Below, one piece after another: positions 2,890 to 26,264 of a stretch of DNA of 64,000 nucleotides. How positions within the stretch are numbered: the stretch's first letter is position 1; every line of letters begins with the position of its first letter. The notes below the pieces were generated by a model. It did no database searches and was not told the DNA's origin. It saw only the letters and a list, made by a program, of their open reading frames with translations. The position numbers were made by a program, and so were the translations under genes. Source of the DNA: a virus (taxonomy: Duplodnaviria; Heunggongvirae; Uroviricota; Caudoviricetes); IMG/VR virus record IMGVR_UViG_2671180676_000004, positions 2,122 through 66,121 of that record; one strand, given 5' to 3'.

Positions 2890-3366
2890 ATGAATACAGC
2901 CCTTTCCATCATCGACGATGCCAACTCAAACACTGCTATCGACTATCGGCAGGAAATGAACGTCATCCACGAAATTGTGGCCGAGTGCGAGAAAGAGATC
3001 GCCTTCATGTATCAGGTACACGACTTCGTTTATGGCGACGAACGCCACAACATGATTAATCGCCTGCTGAGACTAAACCATCGACCAGATGAAGATCGCT
3101 CGCGTTTAAATCGAGGTTGGTTGGATAAAGTCGATCTGGAATGGGTGAAACAGAATATTTGGGCCGAGTACTGGAGGAAGGTCACGGACATGACTAACGT
3201 TTTGCTGATCATGCCAGCTTCCCGTCGTGACGAGTGGTATGAGCAATTTATCGAGGGCAAGCAGGAAGTCATCAAAACTGACAGAACCGGCTATCAGATG
3301 AAGGTTAAAGAGTTCGTTGGTGTACCTGAGTTCAAAGTGGATACAGACATCCCTACGATGGCTTGA
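2890..3366 (+). CDS. hypothetical protein
   Basis: 158-aa ORF; convergent with hsdR, only about 58 bp between the stops. Confidence 0.4.
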   Translation: MNTALSIIDDANSNTAIDYRQEMNVIHEIVAECEKEIAFMYQVHDFVYGDERHNMINRLLRLNHRPDEDRSRLNRGWLDKVDLEWVKQNIWAEYWRKVTDMTNVLLIMPASRRDEWYEQFIEGKQEVIKTDRTGYQMKVKEFVGVPEFKVDTDIPTMA

Positions 3367-20897: not shown

Positions 20898-21123
20898 TGT
20901 GTAAACTGATTTTAAATCCCATTTCTACAAACGCTTTTAACATTAAAAATATATCAGCGTCGTTCACGTCTGCTTTTTTTCGCTCCTGGTCGCTCAATAA
21001 GTCAATTTTGCGCGTCGTTTCATCTATAAGCTCGACTGCGCGCCCAGCGTAACCAGCGATCCCAGCGATGCGATTAACATAATATTCATTATGGACGTTA
21101 ACGCCAGCGATAAGAACAAACAT
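20893..21123 (-). CDS. hypothetical protein (low-GC cassette)
   Basis: 76 aa; AAGGAG upstream on minus strand; bidirectional terminator-like hairpin 20864-20897 downstream. Confidence 0.35.
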   Translation of the reverse strand: MFVLIAGVNVHNEYYVNRIAGIAGYAGRAVELIDETTRKIDLLSDQERKKADVNDADIFLMLKAFVEMGFKISLHK

Positions 21124-21142
21124 GATTAAGCTCCTTAAAAAA

Positions 21143-21346
21143 TTAAATAGAATTTTGAAGTTTTCCGATTAATGCGCTTAAACGTAAGTATTCACGTTTA
21201 CGCTTGCAATCTCGCTTGCTGTTAAGCAAATCAGAAAACGTAAAATTTAATTGGTCGCGTTGCGCGATCAAATCATCGATTAATTCCAGTTTATAAGCGC
21301 GATACTTTGCGCGATATTCCGCGCGGATCTTGTCATAGCTGACCAT
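21143..21346 (-). CDS. hypothetical basic coiled-coil protein (low-GC cassette)
   Basis: Start taken at ATG 21346 (AAGGAG 8 bp upstream) rather than ORF-track start 21391, which would overlap hairpin 21364-21382. Confidence 0.35.
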   Translation of the reverse strand: MVSYDKIRAEYRAKYRAYKLELIDDLIAQRDQLNFTFSDLLNSKRDCKRKREYLRLSALIGKLQNSI

Positions 21347-21363
21347 TTTTAAAGCTCCTTTAA

Positions 21364-21382
21364 AGCGCCCACTATGGGCGCT
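21364..21382. terminator. hairpin with same stem as 20869-20887
   Basis: GCGCCCA-cta-TGGGCGC, downstream of minus-strand gene 21395-22045. Confidence 0.4.
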
Positions 21383-21394
21383 TGATTCCATTAA

Positions 21395-22045
21395 TTACGC
21401 TTTGAAAGCATCAGCTAAATAATTGTAGAAATCATTTTTAATGAAGCGATATTGCTGAGTACCAGCTTTCGCACTCCCAGCTCCTTTGACTTTTTCAACA
21501 AGTCCAAGACGTTCGCAAAGATTGATCAACTGGTTGGCTTGAGTATAGCCAGCGTCCAATTTAATTTCACACGCTTTTTTAGCTTCATTCATTAAATCGA
21601 AAACAGCGCCATTGGTGAACGTGTCGATCTCGTCGTTAATCATATCGATTAAAGCGAATACACGAGATCCAGACATATCAGCGATGGAATAAACGCATTT
21701 ACCAGATTTAATTGATTTAACCAGATAAACCAGTTTTTCCAGAGAATAACTATTAGTCATTGCATCACGAAAAAATACTTCTGGCGCTTGTTTGCTTGCT
21801 TTAATCGCATAGTAGAAAACAGAGCATAATTTTTCGTCTTCTACTGCGTTTACGACGTTGTTGATGAAGTAAGCAAGTTTAGTGGTCGCAGCTTGCATAT
21901 TTGCTTTGTCTGCTTTAGTGTGCGTACCATTTTTATAATGTTCGTTATATGTTTGAGTTGCCAGATCTGCTTTTTCGCGCAGTTCATCGGATACAATGGA
22001 AGCAGCTTCAATGATGGATTTTTTAGAAATGATAATGTTAGCCAT
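21395..22045 (-). CDS. hypothetical protein with C-terminal winged-helix-like segment (possible DNA-binding / replication-initiator-like)
   Basis: 216 aa; AAGGA upstream; C-terminal LINLCERLGLVEKVKG resembles a winged-helix recognition element; low-GC segment. Confidence 0.35.
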   Translation of the reverse strand: MANIIISKKSIIEAASIVSDELREKADLATQTYNEHYKNGTHTKADKANMQAATTKLAYFINNVVNAVEDEKLCSVFYYAIKASKQAPEVFFRDAMTNSYSLEKLVYLVKSIKSGKCVYSIADMSGSRVFALIDMINDEIDTFTNGAVFDLMNEAKKACEIKLDAGYTQANQLINLCERLGLVEKVKGAGSAKAGTQQYRFIKNDFYNYLADAFKA

Positions 22046-22328
22046 GATAATTTTTCCTTATGTAAATTTAAAATTTATTGTCGTTAGCGTCTTCGCTTTC
22101 GACGAGTTCAATTATCGATACGCGAAAAAAGATTGCAAGTGTTTTTTTAAAATTTTTTGCAGGGATGAAAGTCCTAGAAATAAAAGCGAGATCGTCGAAG
22201 GTGTTCCCTAAATAAATAATCGATTCCGGCTTTCGACCTTATATATATTTAGATTATTTGATTTATAGATATAAAGAAGTGATGTGAAAAATAATAACCG
22301 GACTTAGCCGGTTATTAACCTTATAGAT

Positions 22329-22637
22329 TTATTGAACAGACTCTACAGCCTTACGATTGGTGTCAAATAGCGCATCAACGAACTGTGCCGATGACTCGCT
22401 AGATTCGCAATCCAACATTGCCCGTTCTTCATTTGCCACTTTCTTACACAGTTCCACATTCTCACCTATCGCTTTTCCTGCTTTTACGGCTGCCGAAAAT
22501 TGATACATGCAAACTGATACATTCTGAGACGTTGAGCACACGTCATTCATCAGCGACTGAATGACAGGCTTATAGTCCATTGCATTTGCCGCAACTGAGC
22601 AAAGTAAAAATAATGGTGGTAACAATATCGATTTCAT
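22329..22637 (-). CDS. secreted Cys-containing small protein
   Basis: 102 aa; N-terminal signal peptide (MKSILLPPLFLLCSVAANA); hairpin 22296-22320 downstream. Confidence 0.45.
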   Translation of the reverse strand: MKSILLPPLFLLCSVAANAMDYKPVIQSLMNDVCSTSQNVSVCMYQFSAAVKAGKAIGENVELCKKVANEERAMLDCESSESSAQFVDALFDTNRKAVESVQ

Positions 22638-22640
22638 AAC

Positions 22641-23165
22641 TCAAAAAGGCAAAATTCGTTCAACCCAATCGAACAAAACAACTATTTTTCTACCGTTCTC
22701 GACACGTAGTGTAACCTGACAAGCATCTGCGCCTGCTGACACCCCCTCAATTTCACGGCCATCCGCCATGTACACCCTTATAGATTTGTTTGCTTTGTAG
22801 GCTTGGTTGCAAATTGCAAAAAAATCGCGGCGTGATGGCCGATTATCGACATAATCAGGGTGAACTGTTAGTCGACCTTTGAAATCGTGAGCGATACTGT
22901 CAACCACACCTGATTCAATTGTACTAATGCGTTCAAGTGGGAGCCTTATACGATTTTCTTTGTCAAAAGGGGCTGGGCAAAGGTCAACTTTGTTACGAGA
23001 TGGCATGAGGCCATAAACGTACATGCAAAACGCCTGGCCATCTTCGAGAGTGACCCTTACAGGAATTTGTTCTCTGCGCCAGAACATCAGTAGTTTTTCA
23101 ACGTTAGTGTAATCTCGCGGCCAGAGTTCAGCTTGGATACCGTAGGTAATATCTTTGGTTGTCAT
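22641..23165 (-). CDS. hypothetical protein
   Basis: Start taken at ATG 23165 (MTTKDITYG), 4 bp after lipoprotein gene stop; ORF-track start 23243 would overlap the upstream gene. Confidence 0.4.
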   Translation of the reverse strand: MTTKDITYGIQAELWPRDYTNVEKLLMFWRREQIPVRVTLEDGQAFCMYVYGLMPSRNKVDLCPAPFDKENRIRLPLERISTIESGVVDSIAHDFKGRLTVHPDYVDNRPSRRDFFAICNQAYKANKSIRVYMADGREIEGVSAGADACQVTLRVENGRKIVVLFDWVERILPF

Positions 23166-23169
23166 GTCA

Positions 23170-23592
23170 TCACAGAGTTGTTGGCAGAATGTCGATGTCA
23201 CCAGAATTGCTGGTGAACACCCTGAACGCTTTTGTGTCTCCATTCTTCAGAGTCGTTTCTCGCTCTTGACGAGCGGGGTTTAGAGCACATAAACCTGCAC
23301 CTTCAAGAGATGCACCCACAATTAATTCTCCGGCATTTAAATGGAAAGTCGCTTTTTCGCCTGTAGCCAGTTTTGCGACAGTTTCGCCGTTGATGAAAAT
23401 GGAAGCATCACATCCAGCTCCTACAAAACCTGTGTCTCTCATTACCACCAACGTAGCTGGCGCTGCGCTTTGATACTTGAACACTTTGGCCTGCGGTGCT
23501 GGTTTGGCGTCATGGATTGATATTGGGCGTGATTGGCACGCGGTAAGCATCAACACTGGTAACGTTAGTAGAGGGAGAAGCGAGTATTTCAT
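23170..23592 (-). CDS. lipoprotein
   Basis: Start at ATG 23592: MKYSLLPLLTLPVLMLTAC with lipobox LTAC; 140 aa. Confidence 0.5.
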   Translation of the reverse strand: MKYSLLPLLTLPVLMLTACQSRPISIHDAKPAPQAKVFKYQSAAPATLVVMRDTGFVGAGCDASIFINGETVAKLATGEKATFHLNAGELIVGASLEGAGLCALNPARQERETTLKNGDTKAFRVFTSNSGDIDILPTTL

Positions 23593-23660
23593 GATAGTTT
23601 TAGAACAGAAAGTGAACAGTATGGGAGACTTCATCTTTGTCTCCCTAATTGATAGCGTGA

Positions 23661-23939
23661 TTATTTTAATCTGCTTAATAGCGTTTCGAGATCTTCCTTT
23701 GTCATATTAGAGTTCTCATAGATACGCATGATTTTCTCACGAGTCTTAGCGGAAGCCCCGACAGAAGATATAACCTTGTCAAAGTCGGCCATTGTCAATT
23801 GTTCCAGAATGGTATTTATGACTTCAGCCTTAGACATTTTGATATTTTTTTCTTTTAGTTTCACTTGAAACTTTCCAAGTTTGTCATTGGCCTTATCAGA
23901 CAATGCTACCTGACAATAAGTTGTTTTCTTTTCGCTCAT
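23661..23939 (-). CDS. hypothetical small protein
   Basis: 92 aa, Lys-rich, directly downstream of helicase gene on the same strand. Confidence 0.4.
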   Translation of the reverse strand: MSEKKTTYCQVALSDKANDKLGKFQVKLKEKNIKMSKAEVINTILEQLTMADFDKVISSVGASAKTREKIMRIYENSNMTKEDLETLLSRLK

Positions 23940-23941
23940 AA

Positions 23942-25501
23942 CTAATCTCGTTTCAGAACTCCAAAATCGAATGCTCCATCAATAGGCAATACACCTTCTG
24001 CAAAGCCAGGTGTGGTGTCGATGATGTGTTTTCGCTCATAAGAGTGAGACAACAGGTATTTGTTGCTAATGTCAATGAAATCAGTGATAAAACACACGTT
24101 TGCCTGATTTTTTTTGGCTCGTAAGCCACGACCGACACGCTGCCTCATTTCAACTTCTGCTTTCCCACCACCAGCAAGAATGACCGCACCAACGCTTGGC
24201 ACATCAACACCGACATCCAGAATAGTCGAGCCTATTAAAACATCTATTTCTCCAGACGCTAAACTGTTCAGCTTTGCTTGCCTTGTCGCCTGGTTAGATT
24301 CCCCATAGATGAAGTCAACTCTAAGGCCGGACTCTTTCATCATTTCCATCAGGATTTGCCCGTGGCGTTTAAGACGAACCAGAGTCATACAATTGAGAGA
24401 ATGTTGCTTATAGAGCAATGCTTCGCGAACAATGGCCTCGTTACGTCCCAAATTATACACGATCCCCAACTGATAAGCCTTTTGGTAGGCGGTGCTCATA
24501 CCAACTCTAAAATTGAGGTGTTTGTTGGCAAGTTCGGCCTTGATTCTGGCCTCGTCTGGCTTGTAGGCAACTTTATGATAAAGGAAGTACGGCTTTGCCA
24601 GAATGCCTCGATCAATCAGGTACTTTTCTGTGACTTTAATTTCAATTCGCCCGGCCACCGCCATCAGGCGCATGTTGGCTTCCGTCGAATCCTTCATGAA
24701 CGGCGTGGCTGTAAGCGCCAGACGATAGTCTGCGTTCACACATAATCTGGCGATGTCATAGAAATTTGAGCCTGAAGACTCATGCGCCTCTTCCAGAATA
24801 AGAAGAGAGACACTTGAAAGGAAGCGTTTCACCAACTCCCGACGTTTGAGGTGGTAGCTTTTCTTATCTGGTGTTGCATCGCGTGGTGGTTCTTCGAGGA
24901 AACTTGCAAGAGTTTGAACTGTAGCGACGTTGATATGTCGTGATACCTGGAACTCACCCGAGCCAATGACTCCAACCTTTTGGTCTTTTAACCACGGTTC
25001 GCCATTTTCGGCGCGGTAGTCGATGGATCTCTGGAAGTTTTCGGCCATTTGAAACATCAGAACAGAGCGGGTTGTTAAAAATAATGTCATTCGACCGATA
25101 CGTGCAGCTGCTTTGCAGGCAACGTTAGATTTCCCGCCACCAGTAGCGATCTGCGCAATCATCATTCCCTCTCGAACCAGTGTTTCCACAGTCTGATCCT
25201 GATACGCATAATCAGGATTGTATGGGAATGGGTTAACCGCAGGATTTGGTTTACCAAGCGCCGGGGCTTTGTCTTTGCGGATATGAACACATTTGATGCC
25301 CGCCTTGTTCAAGTTCGCCGCTACAGGCTTGGCAAAGCCAGCAGGGAACGAGTTTTTACTCCAGTTGAACATCGTGCTTGTGCCCTTCCAGTCGCCAGTC
25401 TCGACTTCGTAGCTCAACATCTGTTGCACCATTTGCTTTACCTTGTCATCTGCGCCAGAAATAAGCGCATTAACTGCGTTAGATACAATCCGAACAGTCA
25501 T
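23942..25501 (-). CDS. superfamily-2 DEAD/DEAH-type helicase
   Basis: 519 aa; motif I ATGGGKS, motif II LILEEAH, motif III LTATP, motif VI VGRGLR. Confidence 0.75.
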   Translation of the reverse strand: MTVRIVSNAVNALISGADDKVKQMVQQMLSYEVETGDWKGTSTMFNWSKNSFPAGFAKPVAANLNKAGIKCVHIRKDKAPALGKPNPAVNPFPYNPDYAYQDQTVETLVREGMMIAQIATGGGKSNVACKAAARIGRMTLFLTTRSVLMFQMAENFQRSIDYRAENGEPWLKDQKVGVIGSGEFQVSRHINVATVQTLASFLEEPPRDATPDKKSYHLKRRELVKRFLSSVSLLILEEAHESSGSNFYDIARLCVNADYRLALTATPFMKDSTEANMRLMAVAGRIEIKVTEKYLIDRGILAKPYFLYHKVAYKPDEARIKAELANKHLNFRVGMSTAYQKAYQLGIVYNLGRNEAIVREALLYKQHSLNCMTLVRLKRHGQILMEMMKESGLRVDFIYGESNQATRQAKLNSLASGEIDVLIGSTILDVGVDVPSVGAVILAGGGKAEVEMRQRVGRGLRAKKNQANVCFITDFIDISNKYLLSHSYERKHIIDTTPGFAEGVLPIDGAFDFGVLKRD

Positions 25502-25583
25502 AAACCTCTTTCCTTAGTGCCTTTTGTATGTTATTTGGCTATTATAATAAGTAAGTGATTACTTAGTGGATTGTAGCAATAAA

Positions 25584-26264
25584 ATGGATGTAAAAATCAC
25601 GATTTTGCAGGTTGATGTTGCCAACCTTCGCCCGAATACCTGGAACACCAATTCGGTTGGTGCGCAGAATTTTGAAAAACTGAAAGGTTCTATCGAAAAA
25701 TTGGGCTTTTTTAAGCCAATTTTGGCTCGTGAACTTGAAGATGGATTTTTTGAAATCCTCGGCGGCGAACATCGCTGGCGTGCTGCTATTGAGCAAGGAA
25801 TTTCAACGGTTCCGGTGCTTTCTGTGGGCAAAATTAGCGATGTCGTAGCTAAACAGATGTCACTGGTGGACAACGAGCGATACGGTGAAGACGACCAAAT
25901 CGCATTGCAACGCTTCATTGAAGAAATTCAGTCAGAACTTGACTATCAACTGTCTGAAATCGCCCCGTATGACGACGAAATCTCGATGGTTTTAGCAAAA
26001 GAGGCGGCAATCGACCTTGAAGCACTGGAGGCGTTGTCTCGTGGTAGTGATGAGCCTGTCGATACCGACAAACGAGAGAAAACCGAACGTGTGGGTGCGG
26101 AACATCAGACCATGCGCTTCAAAGTAACTTTCGATGCGTCAGATCGTGTTGCAGAAACCATAAAAAACATCATCAAAGAGCAGGCTATTAACACCGGTAA
26201 TGAAATGGAGAACGCTGGTGAGGCTCTGGTGTGGCTGGTCGACTACTACAAGGAGCGTATGTAA
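25584..26264 (+). CDS. ParB-like nuclease-domain protein 1
   Basis: ATG 25584; ILGGEHRWRAA matches the ParB/Srx arginine-rich box; no obvious HTH domain. Confidence 0.6.
   Translation: MDVKITILQVDVANLRPNTWNTNSVGAQNFEKLKGSIEKLGFFKPILARELEDGFFEILGGEHRWRAAIEQGISTVPVLSVGKISDVVAKQMSLVDNERYGEDDQIALQRFIEEIQSELDYQLSEIAPYDDEISMVLAKEAAIDLEALEALSRGSDEPVDTDKREKTERVGAEHQTMRFKVTFDASDRVAETIKNIIKEQAINTGNEMENAGEALVWLVDYYKERM

Follow-up and report, generated by a model that had tools for sequence, protein, structure and literature searches.

Three consecutive minus-strand genes and their products

We analyzed a cluster of three genes in the window, by which we mean the whole stretch of 64 000 nucleotides (nt) taken from the IMG/VR virus record IMGVR_UViG_2671180676_000004 (positions 2122 to 66 121). 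The genes encode a lipoprotein, a homologue of the flagellin repressor FljA and a small secreted protein (Table 1; lengths in amino acids, aa). Over the window region 21000–26000 the identity is 98.5% to Escherichia phage CMS-2020a and about 80% to Salmonella phage SSU5, and judged by this similarity the window is a phage-plasmid of the SSU5/pHCM2/pMT1 family. From annotated relatives we derived a gene order that is common to SSU5, pHCM2 (Salmonella Typhi) and pMT1 (Yersinia pestis) and consists of two ParB-like genes, a DEAD/DEAH helicase gene, a 92-aa gene, the gene of the 140-aa lipoprotein, a ‘transcriptional regulator’ and a 216-aa gene. The three-gene locus sits on the replication and partition side of this phage-plasmid. 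An earlier interpretation made from the letters of the window (the sequence-only reading) had described three consecutive minus-strand genes downstream of the helicase gene and proposed that they form a cluster of exported proteins serving as a superinfection-exclusion module. The gene arrangement was found as described, while the proposed function is discussed below.

Table 1. Features at the three-gene locus and in its surroundings (window coordinates)
Feature	Position	Strand	Description
216-aa gene	21395..22045		phrog_1513; conserved backbone gene bracketing the cassette
Conserved non-coding region, 283 nt	22046..22328	(-)	Between the cassette and the 216-aa backbone gene; right edge is a recombination boundary
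Intrinsic-terminator-like hairpin	22292..22317	(-)	TAATAACCGG-CTAAGT-CCGGTTATTA, then TTTTT; 3' end of the operon
Secreted (periplasmic) protein, 102 aa	22329..22637	(-)	phrog_9536; signal peptide residues 1-19, ending …AANA before MD
Orphan FljA-family protein, 174 aa	22641..23165	(-)	PF03614, phrog_1444; predicted mRNA-binding translational repressor; cassette anchor
Outer-membrane-type lipoprotein, 140 aa	23170..23592	(-)	phrog_890; lipobox LTAC, Cys19, Gln at +2
Weak sigma-70-like promoter match	23660..23689	(-)	TCGAAA-18-AATAAT, 9/12; 3' end of the 92-aa gene
92-aa gene	23661..23939		phrog_1466; conserved backbone gene bracketing the cassette
DEAD/DEAH helicase gene, 519 aa	23942..25501		Upstream of the three-gene locus

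The three open reading frames (ORFs) are separated by intergenic gaps of 4 and 3 nt, and a terminator-like hairpin begins 12 nt past the stop codon of the last gene. Because of these short junctions and the hairpin with its T-run, the locus has the anatomy of one operon. All three genes are conserved or under purifying selection and are therefore far more than chance ORFs. The hairpin is kept in 8 elements, with both sides of the stem altered in the divergent Klebsiella element L011. The promoter match precedes the lipoprotein gene and falls on the left recombination boundary of the cassette, at about 23690 (see below).

The middle protein had been regarded as unknown in the sequence-only reading, which is not correct. 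It matches the Pfam family PF03614 (‘repressor of phase-1 flagellin’) over all 170 positions of the profile (1–170/170) with an E-value of 1.5e-84 and 282.4 bits against a cutoff of 24; a genuine FljA scores 311.5 bits. As reference we used the annotated fljA gene (L012:3001-3540) that lies beside a flagellin gene and hin in an IS26-borne cassette of an IncHI2 Salmonella plasmid. Compared to the FljA of this hin-fljB-fljA cassette, the FljA-like protein of the window shows 34% identity and 54% positives over residues 1–171 (E 2e-37), and common to both are an N-terminal motif YG.xAExWPRDY and a C-terminal motif PSRRDFFxIC…DWVxRI. Its N-terminus is not hydrophobic (0.43) and carries no signal peptide, so we classify it as a cytoplasmic FljA homologue by sequence. 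The proposed cluster of exported proteins can thus be kept for the two flanking proteins, both of which look exported, but not for the middle one.

FljA acts by binding the 5' leader of the fliC mRNA, and in Salmonella the fljA gene is co-transcribed behind the flagellin gene fljB and silences the competitor. According to a published report, FljA-type proteins keep the fliC mRNA from being translated and are able to silence a foreign fliC, and a plasmid with fljA(z66) turned a motile E. coli non-motile (PMC2652032). The window protein belongs over its full length to the same PF03614 family as the FljA of the Salmonella hin-fljB-fljA cassette and FljA(z66) of pBSSB1 and is of similar size (174 aa compared to 179 aa for FljA). 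As with FljA, its gene lies on a mobile element and comes second in an operon that starts with the gene of an exported protein. Unlike fljA, it has no linked flagellin gene and is a backbone gene of the phage-plasmids that is also present in hosts without flagella. No homologue of the FljA-like protein was found in PDB by sequence. Residues 120–162 give a weak, below-threshold match to the Pfam Hfq (Sm-like) family (E 6.8e-4), a hint of a possible Sm-like RNA-binding fold in the FljA family. We also considered a tandem Sm/Hfq-like duplication and rejected it, as hhalign of the N-terminal half against the C-terminal half aligned 14 columns with a probability of 4%.

For the two exported proteins, the assignment is based on motifs, hydropathy and conservation. 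The lipoprotein begins with MKYSLLPLLTLPVLMLTAC, giving a signal of the layout MK-YSLLPLLTLPVLM-LTAC in which the best 10-residue hydropathy is 2.31. Applying a strict lipobox filter ([LVI][ASTVI][GAS]C within about 35 residues), we found that it is the sole ORF of the window to pass. The lipobox that the sequence-only reading had pointed out is well supported: it is kept in the close homologues and in 132 of 147 distant relatives, and those 132 share exactly two more Cys (three in all). The mature protein of 121 aa likewise has two further conserved Cys besides Cys19. At +2, where the window protein has Gln, most relatives have Ala, Ser or Thr and none has Asp. According to the Lol sorting rule of E. 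coli, a lipoprotein with a non-Asp residue at +2 goes to the outer membrane, and we therefore expect the protein to be targeted there.

The phrog_890 profile is matched at positions 6–136 of 136 (E 9e-52), and the lipobox, the three Cys and the invariant R-D…G…C…R positions of this family are all found in the window lipoprotein. A match to DUF2846 (PF11008) stays below the gathering score (18.1 bits against 34.3), and 16 of 71 relatives give sub-threshold DUF2846 matches as well (best E 1.5e-5), so that by sequence the lipoprotein is at best a distant relative of this family. The close homologues form 42 clusters on contigs of about 105–115 kb. An exhaustive phmmer search returned 932 cluster representatives (266 at E <= 1e-10), nearly all of them lipoproteins of about 140 aa, from which the family appears as a large, widespread general bacterial one. 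With regard to the start of the gene, the ATG at 23592 is conserved in homologues and has no obvious Shine–Dalgarno sequence in the window element; an alternative upstream ATG at 23634, giving a 154-aa precursor with a 33-residue signal, is preceded at 6 nt by a strong Shine–Dalgarno AGGGAG (23646..23641). In pHCM2 we observed a GC hairpin between the 92-aa gene and the lipoprotein gene (L005, about 3005-3025). A chromosomal copy of the lipoprotein with 61% identity is found in enterobacterial genomes and gut metagenomes, where it shares a small islet with a PIN-domain gene and remnants of an integrase (L016-L020, 5001..5465), adjoining CobU/CobS-family genes and a YkuD-type L,D-transpeptidase gene.

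The 102-aa protein had been described as secreted and Cys-containing, and this agrees with our data. Its signal peptide has the usual n/h/c layout (MKSILLPPLFLLCSVAANA followed by MD) and ends with ANA; across the homologues it diverges in sequence, stays hydrophobic and keeps the AxA site. In the mature part, Cys34, Cys43 and Cys64 are invariant and Cys77 is present in at least 90% of the homologues. The structure model of the mature protein (83 aa) is helical with a pLDDT (predicted local distance difference test) above 90, and no structural relative was found for it. With its Sec signal and the four conserved Cys, the protein fits a disulfide-bonded periplasmic helical protein. The family is restricted to this plasmid family (12 clusters, 259 plasmids). 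In pHCM2 the gene is present directly after the FljA-like gene but unlisted, and the divergent Klebsiella element L011 has a 100-aa counterpart with the same C-x8-C-x20-C spacing.

Conservation of the FljA-like gene and exchange of its neighbours

Next, we investigated how widely the FljA-like gene is distributed. A tblastn search against PLSDB found it in 835 plasmids, in 826 of them with a coverage of at least 80%; 797 of the plasmids are non-mobilizable. The genera were Klebsiella (345), Escherichia (229), Enterobacter (92), Yersinia (62) and Salmonella (60), and about sixteen of the 835 hits are true fljA-flagellin plasmids. The neighbouring 216-aa backbone gene occurs in 815 plasmids with almost the same genus counts. 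Since both the plasmid numbers and the genera match, the FljA-like gene is essentially universal in the plasmid family. It is also present in all 12 SSU5-like phage records and in no other phage type. Even a very divergent Klebsiella lineage has a 36%-identical copy in the same syntenic place (92.7 bits on PF03614). The ratio of nonsynonymous to synonymous substitutions (dN/dS) is 0.08–0.16 in every measurable comparison, with no relaxation in the Klebsiella lineages. As a word-based protein search and a genome pattern scan recovered almost only phage-plasmid copies, the FljA-like proteins form a clade separate from FljA. A profile scan of genome contigs yielded five loci, all of the phage-plasmid type, and did not reach the chromosomal fljA. 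Across the plasmid family the 216-aa protein is mostly 80–100% conserved and the FljA-like protein mostly 60–80%.

In all 14 elements that we inspected, the immediate neighbour of the FljA-like gene encodes an exported protein, and these neighbours come from at least three unrelated exported families. In the window, SSU5, pHCM2, pMT1 and L006-L009 the neighbour is the phrog_890 lipoprotein gene 4 nt upstream, and in the Klebsiella element L004 it is an inverted phrog_890 lipoprotein gene (26% identity, hhalign 99.8%, phrog_890 E 1.2e-41). A secreted protein of 196–199 aa overlaps the FljA-like start in L027 and L010, while a 118-aa secreted protein is encoded just upstream in the Klebsiella lineage L025. 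Cyrano (L001) has a 266-aa lipoprotein transcribed divergently from the FljA-like gene, and L011 has a 100-aa secreted protein with four Cys downstream of it. Five of the elements come from Buttiauxella, two Kluyvera, a Y. pestis contig and a metagenome bin; in these, the FljA-like protein is preceded by a lipoprotein or by the 196-aa secreted protein. None of the 14 elements inspected has a flagellin gene beside the FljA-like gene; the neighbour is the exported-protein gene. This adjacency mirrors fljB-fljA, where the repressor gene follows the gene of an exported protein.

Comparison of the window with its sister, the CMS-2020a element of strain SCU-175, shows how these neighbours change. 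The flanks are 96–97% identical up to about 22328 and again from about 23690, and between them the FljA-like gene alone can be aligned (75.5%). In the SCU-175 element a 199-aa secreted protein and two cytoplasmic proteins replace the lipoprotein and the 102-aa protein, and the stop codon of the 199-aa gene overlaps the FljA-like start. Judged by these alignments, the cassette has been swapped by recombination between 96–97%-identical backbones. Sharp boundaries at about 22328 and 23690 were seen against L027 (CP054387) and Cyrano, where flanks of 95–98% surround FljA-like alleles of 75–78%. The lipoprotein diverges further than the regulator: where the FljA-like proteins of two elements share 79% identity, their lipoproteins share 26%. 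The three genes themselves have already been deposited in hundreds of sequences as ‘hypothetical’, ‘lipoprotein’ and ‘repressor of phase-1 flagellin’, and our literature searches returned no functional study of the FljA-like or lipoprotein genes of SSU5, pHCM2 or pMT1. What is new here is that the FljA-like gene is an orphan conserved throughout the family and always paired with exported proteins that can be exchanged. Phage-plasmids of the SSU5 type occur frequently in clinical E. coli, Klebsiella, Enterobacter and Salmonella, and hardly any work has been done on their accessory genes; the pairing suggests that these phage-plasmids carry a modular surface-conversion system.

From these data we favor the reading, with a probability of roughly 0.4, that the locus, a recombination-delimited accessory operon, acts as a lysogenic-conversion cassette, in which envelope proteins are combined with a FljA-type post-transcriptional repressor. 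The phage-plasmid copy would do the same kind of job as FljA in Salmonella, that is, it would block translation of a target mRNA while the exported envelope proteins of the element are made. In motile hosts, for example E. coli and Salmonella, this target may be fliC. Because the gene is conserved to the same degree where the hosts lack flagella, a different mRNA of the host or of the element is the more probable target, or a second one. Carriers would end up with an altered cell surface, and exclusion of other phages might follow from this. We note that this reading and the three alternatives set out below overlap and are not mutually exclusive.

Several observations weigh against the conversion cassette. 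Klebsiella pneumoniae and Y. pestis are non-flagellated, and because the FljA-like gene is intact in plasmids of Klebsiella (345) and Yersinia (62), the host flagellin FliC is not its universal target. H:d flagella are still made by Salmonella Typhi that bear pHCM2, a plasmid described as cryptic. A sequence resembling the fliC leader was not found in the window (best blastn-short E 0.28, with 9–12-mers at chance level). In L004 and Cyrano the lipoprotein gene lies on the strand opposite to the FljA-like gene, and the functional coupling of the regulator and the exported proteins is something we infer from adjacency alone. The three exported-protein families are without known function, the structure model of the lipoprotein is of low confidence (a beta-sandwich in AlphaFold2, pLDDT 59), and the operon promoter is a 9/12 consensus match.

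The same evidence bears on a dedicated shut-off of motility, where the FljA-like protein would repress the host fliC, the carriers would lose their flagella and the exported proteins would be accessory. Such a loss would protect from flagellotropic phages, save energy or evade TLR5. The full-length homology to FljA with the common N- and C-terminal motifs is in line with this idea, as is the plasmid-borne FljA homologue that abolished E. coli motility (PMC2652032). However, plasmids of the non-flagellated Klebsiella and Y. pestis keep the gene intact and just as conserved, the identity to FljA is just 34%, and we found no literature report that ties carriage of SSU5, pHCM2 or pMT1 to a loss of motility. 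We therefore consider a dedicated flagellin shut-off improbable. A universal FljA-like protein that cannot act on flagellin in many of its hosts implies another RNA or DNA target, which could give a handle on host reprogramming or on self-control by these elements.

A more far-reaching version of the conversion cassette would see the FljA family as a general class of ‘co-expressed silencers’ of mobile elements. Here translation of the orphan FljA would be coupled to that of interchangeable exported proteins, and FljA would bind a host mRNA leader (fliC in motile hosts, or the mRNA of another surface structure in Klebsiella or Yersinia), so that a surface component of the host is swapped for one of the element. 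We regard this generalization as quite unlikely at present. If true, it would be an unrecognised post-transcriptional route to lysogenic conversion and phage exclusion in clinically important plasmids of S. Typhi, Y. pestis and K. pneumoniae.

The lipoprotein compared to exclusion proteins and morons

Unrelated temperate phages repeatedly carry the phrog_890 lipoprotein as an inserted gene, a moron. In the lambdoid phage mEp390 a homologue has a gpK-like gene on one side and a gpI-like gene on the other and lies just ahead of the central tail fibre gene (L023, 4420..4866), and its annotators had already noted the likeness to the pMT1 lipoprotein. An N15-like linear plasmid-prophage of Klebsiella has a homologue in the same gpK-like/gpI-like position (L021, 3956..4378), and in HK639 it follows the tape-measure gene (L024, 4459..4872). 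The family also occurs in temperate phages of Pseudomonas and Vibrio. This distribution brings up the superinfection exclusion proposed in the sequence-only reading. In a model of this kind the lipoprotein, perhaps together with the periplasmic protein, would inactivate an outer-membrane receptor from the periplasmic side in analogy to Llp and Cor.

Some features of the locus would suit this function. The window protein shares with Cor (phi80/N15/mEp167) and Llp (T5) that it is a small lipoprotein, is encoded by a phage and has a signal of the outer-membrane type. Its relatives sit as morons within lambdoid tail gene clusters, adjoining tail-tip and central-fibre genes (mEp390, the N15-like Klebsiella prophage) or the tape-measure gene (HK639). 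The slot changes its content through the exchange of cassettes, in the manner of conflict loci, and the lipoprotein diverges far more than the linked FljA-like protein. On the other hand, a sequence relationship to Cor and Llp could not be found beyond the lipobox and signal peptide. The family profile run against all PDB sequences matched the T5 ‘Lytic conversion lipoprotein’ (8a60_B) over residues 1–19 only (E 0.47), and hhalign against N15 gp24 (Cor) aligned 17 signal-peptide columns with a probability of 35%. The window itself contains no Cor homologue (tblastn of Cor, E > 1). With 121 aa the mature lipoprotein is about twice as large as mature Cor or Llp (about 60), it is predicted to be a beta-sandwich with one disulfide, and its gene lies between the helicase gene and the replication and partition genes, unlike cor beside tail-fibre genes. 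Since mEp390 carries Cor in addition to the lipoprotein homologue, the two are not interchangeable.

Further points are the large chromosomal bacterial family to which the lipoprotein belongs, its dN/dS of 0.02–0.14, which is not positive selection, and the lack of a PADLOC match at E <= 0.01 for any of the three proteins; a search against NCBIfam gave nothing either. SSU5 is reported to use the lipopolysaccharide core and not a protein receptor. Moreover, receptor exclusion leaves the linked FljA-like gene unexplained. Taken together, exclusion in the manner of Llp and Cor is unlikely to be the main function of the locus. What can be kept of the proposal is an accessory, host-directed envelope cassette, as indicated by the moron family and the exchanged slot, while the kinship to Llp and Cor cannot; the FljA-family regulator as the conserved anchor points to post-transcriptional control rather than simple receptor masking. 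If the cassette does exclude other phages, the host range in phage therapy would be affected.

Compared to the lambdoid morons lom, bor and cor, the cassette is likewise an autonomous small unit with a terminator that encodes envelope proteins and varies between near-identical phages. It differs from them in having a linked cytoplasmic regulator and in occupying a fixed slot bounded by conserved sequences, with a GC content (42–48%) that does not depart from the window mean of 46%.

The conserved non-coding region downstream of the operon

Finally, we analyzed the non-coding region between the cassette and the 216-aa gene. In an alignment of 8 elements it shows a mean column identity of 77% with more than 100 invariant columns, although one of the aligned elements has a FljA-like protein with 36% and a 100-aa secreted protein with about 25% identity to those of the window. 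The region contains the terminator, repeated ATATAAGG motifs, an invariant TTTATTTAGGnAACACCTTC (22197..22216) that is unique within the window, and a promoter-like CTTGCA-N16-GATAAT (22111..22138). Because it has neither an Rfam match nor, according to RNAalifold on the conserved intergenic alignment, covariation beyond the terminator, it probably consists of DNA-level operators. The region is a possible regulatory target.

The FljA-like protein may be a regulator of the element itself, acting for example on the downstream 216-aa gene via the intergenic region or on the cassette mRNA, with the exported genes as independent cargo in a permissive slot. The unusually conserved region with its invariant motifs and promoter lies immediately downstream and would be a natural target. 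In favor of a self-directed regulator, the gene is universal and syntenic in the family regardless of host flagella and stays under purifying selection in all lineages, and exported neighbours that come from unrelated families and sometimes lie on the other strand look like those of a cargo hot spot. Unlike a fixed backbone regulator, however, the FljA-like allele is exchanged with the cargo (75.5% compared to 96% in the flanks), the intergenic motifs are constant across FljA-like alleles, and RNAalifold finds no structured leader. The adjacency to an exported-protein gene in 14 of 14 elements is also hard to credit to chance, and the known FljA proteins act on host mRNA (PMC2652032). We hold such self-regulation, the main rival of the conversion cassette, to be possible but somewhat doubtful. 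If the cassette is inert cargo, the outcome of our analysis would be merely a corrected annotation.

In the same region we also noticed a 12-mer, ATMTATAAGGKT, which occurs three times on the minus strand of the window. Two copies (22317..22328 and 22235..22246) lie in the conserved intergenic region, and the third (22774..22785) falls inside the conserved KSIRVYM codons of the FljA-like gene. With 0.74 matches expected and three copies reached in 3 of 100 shuffles, this enrichment is marginal and possibly due to chance.

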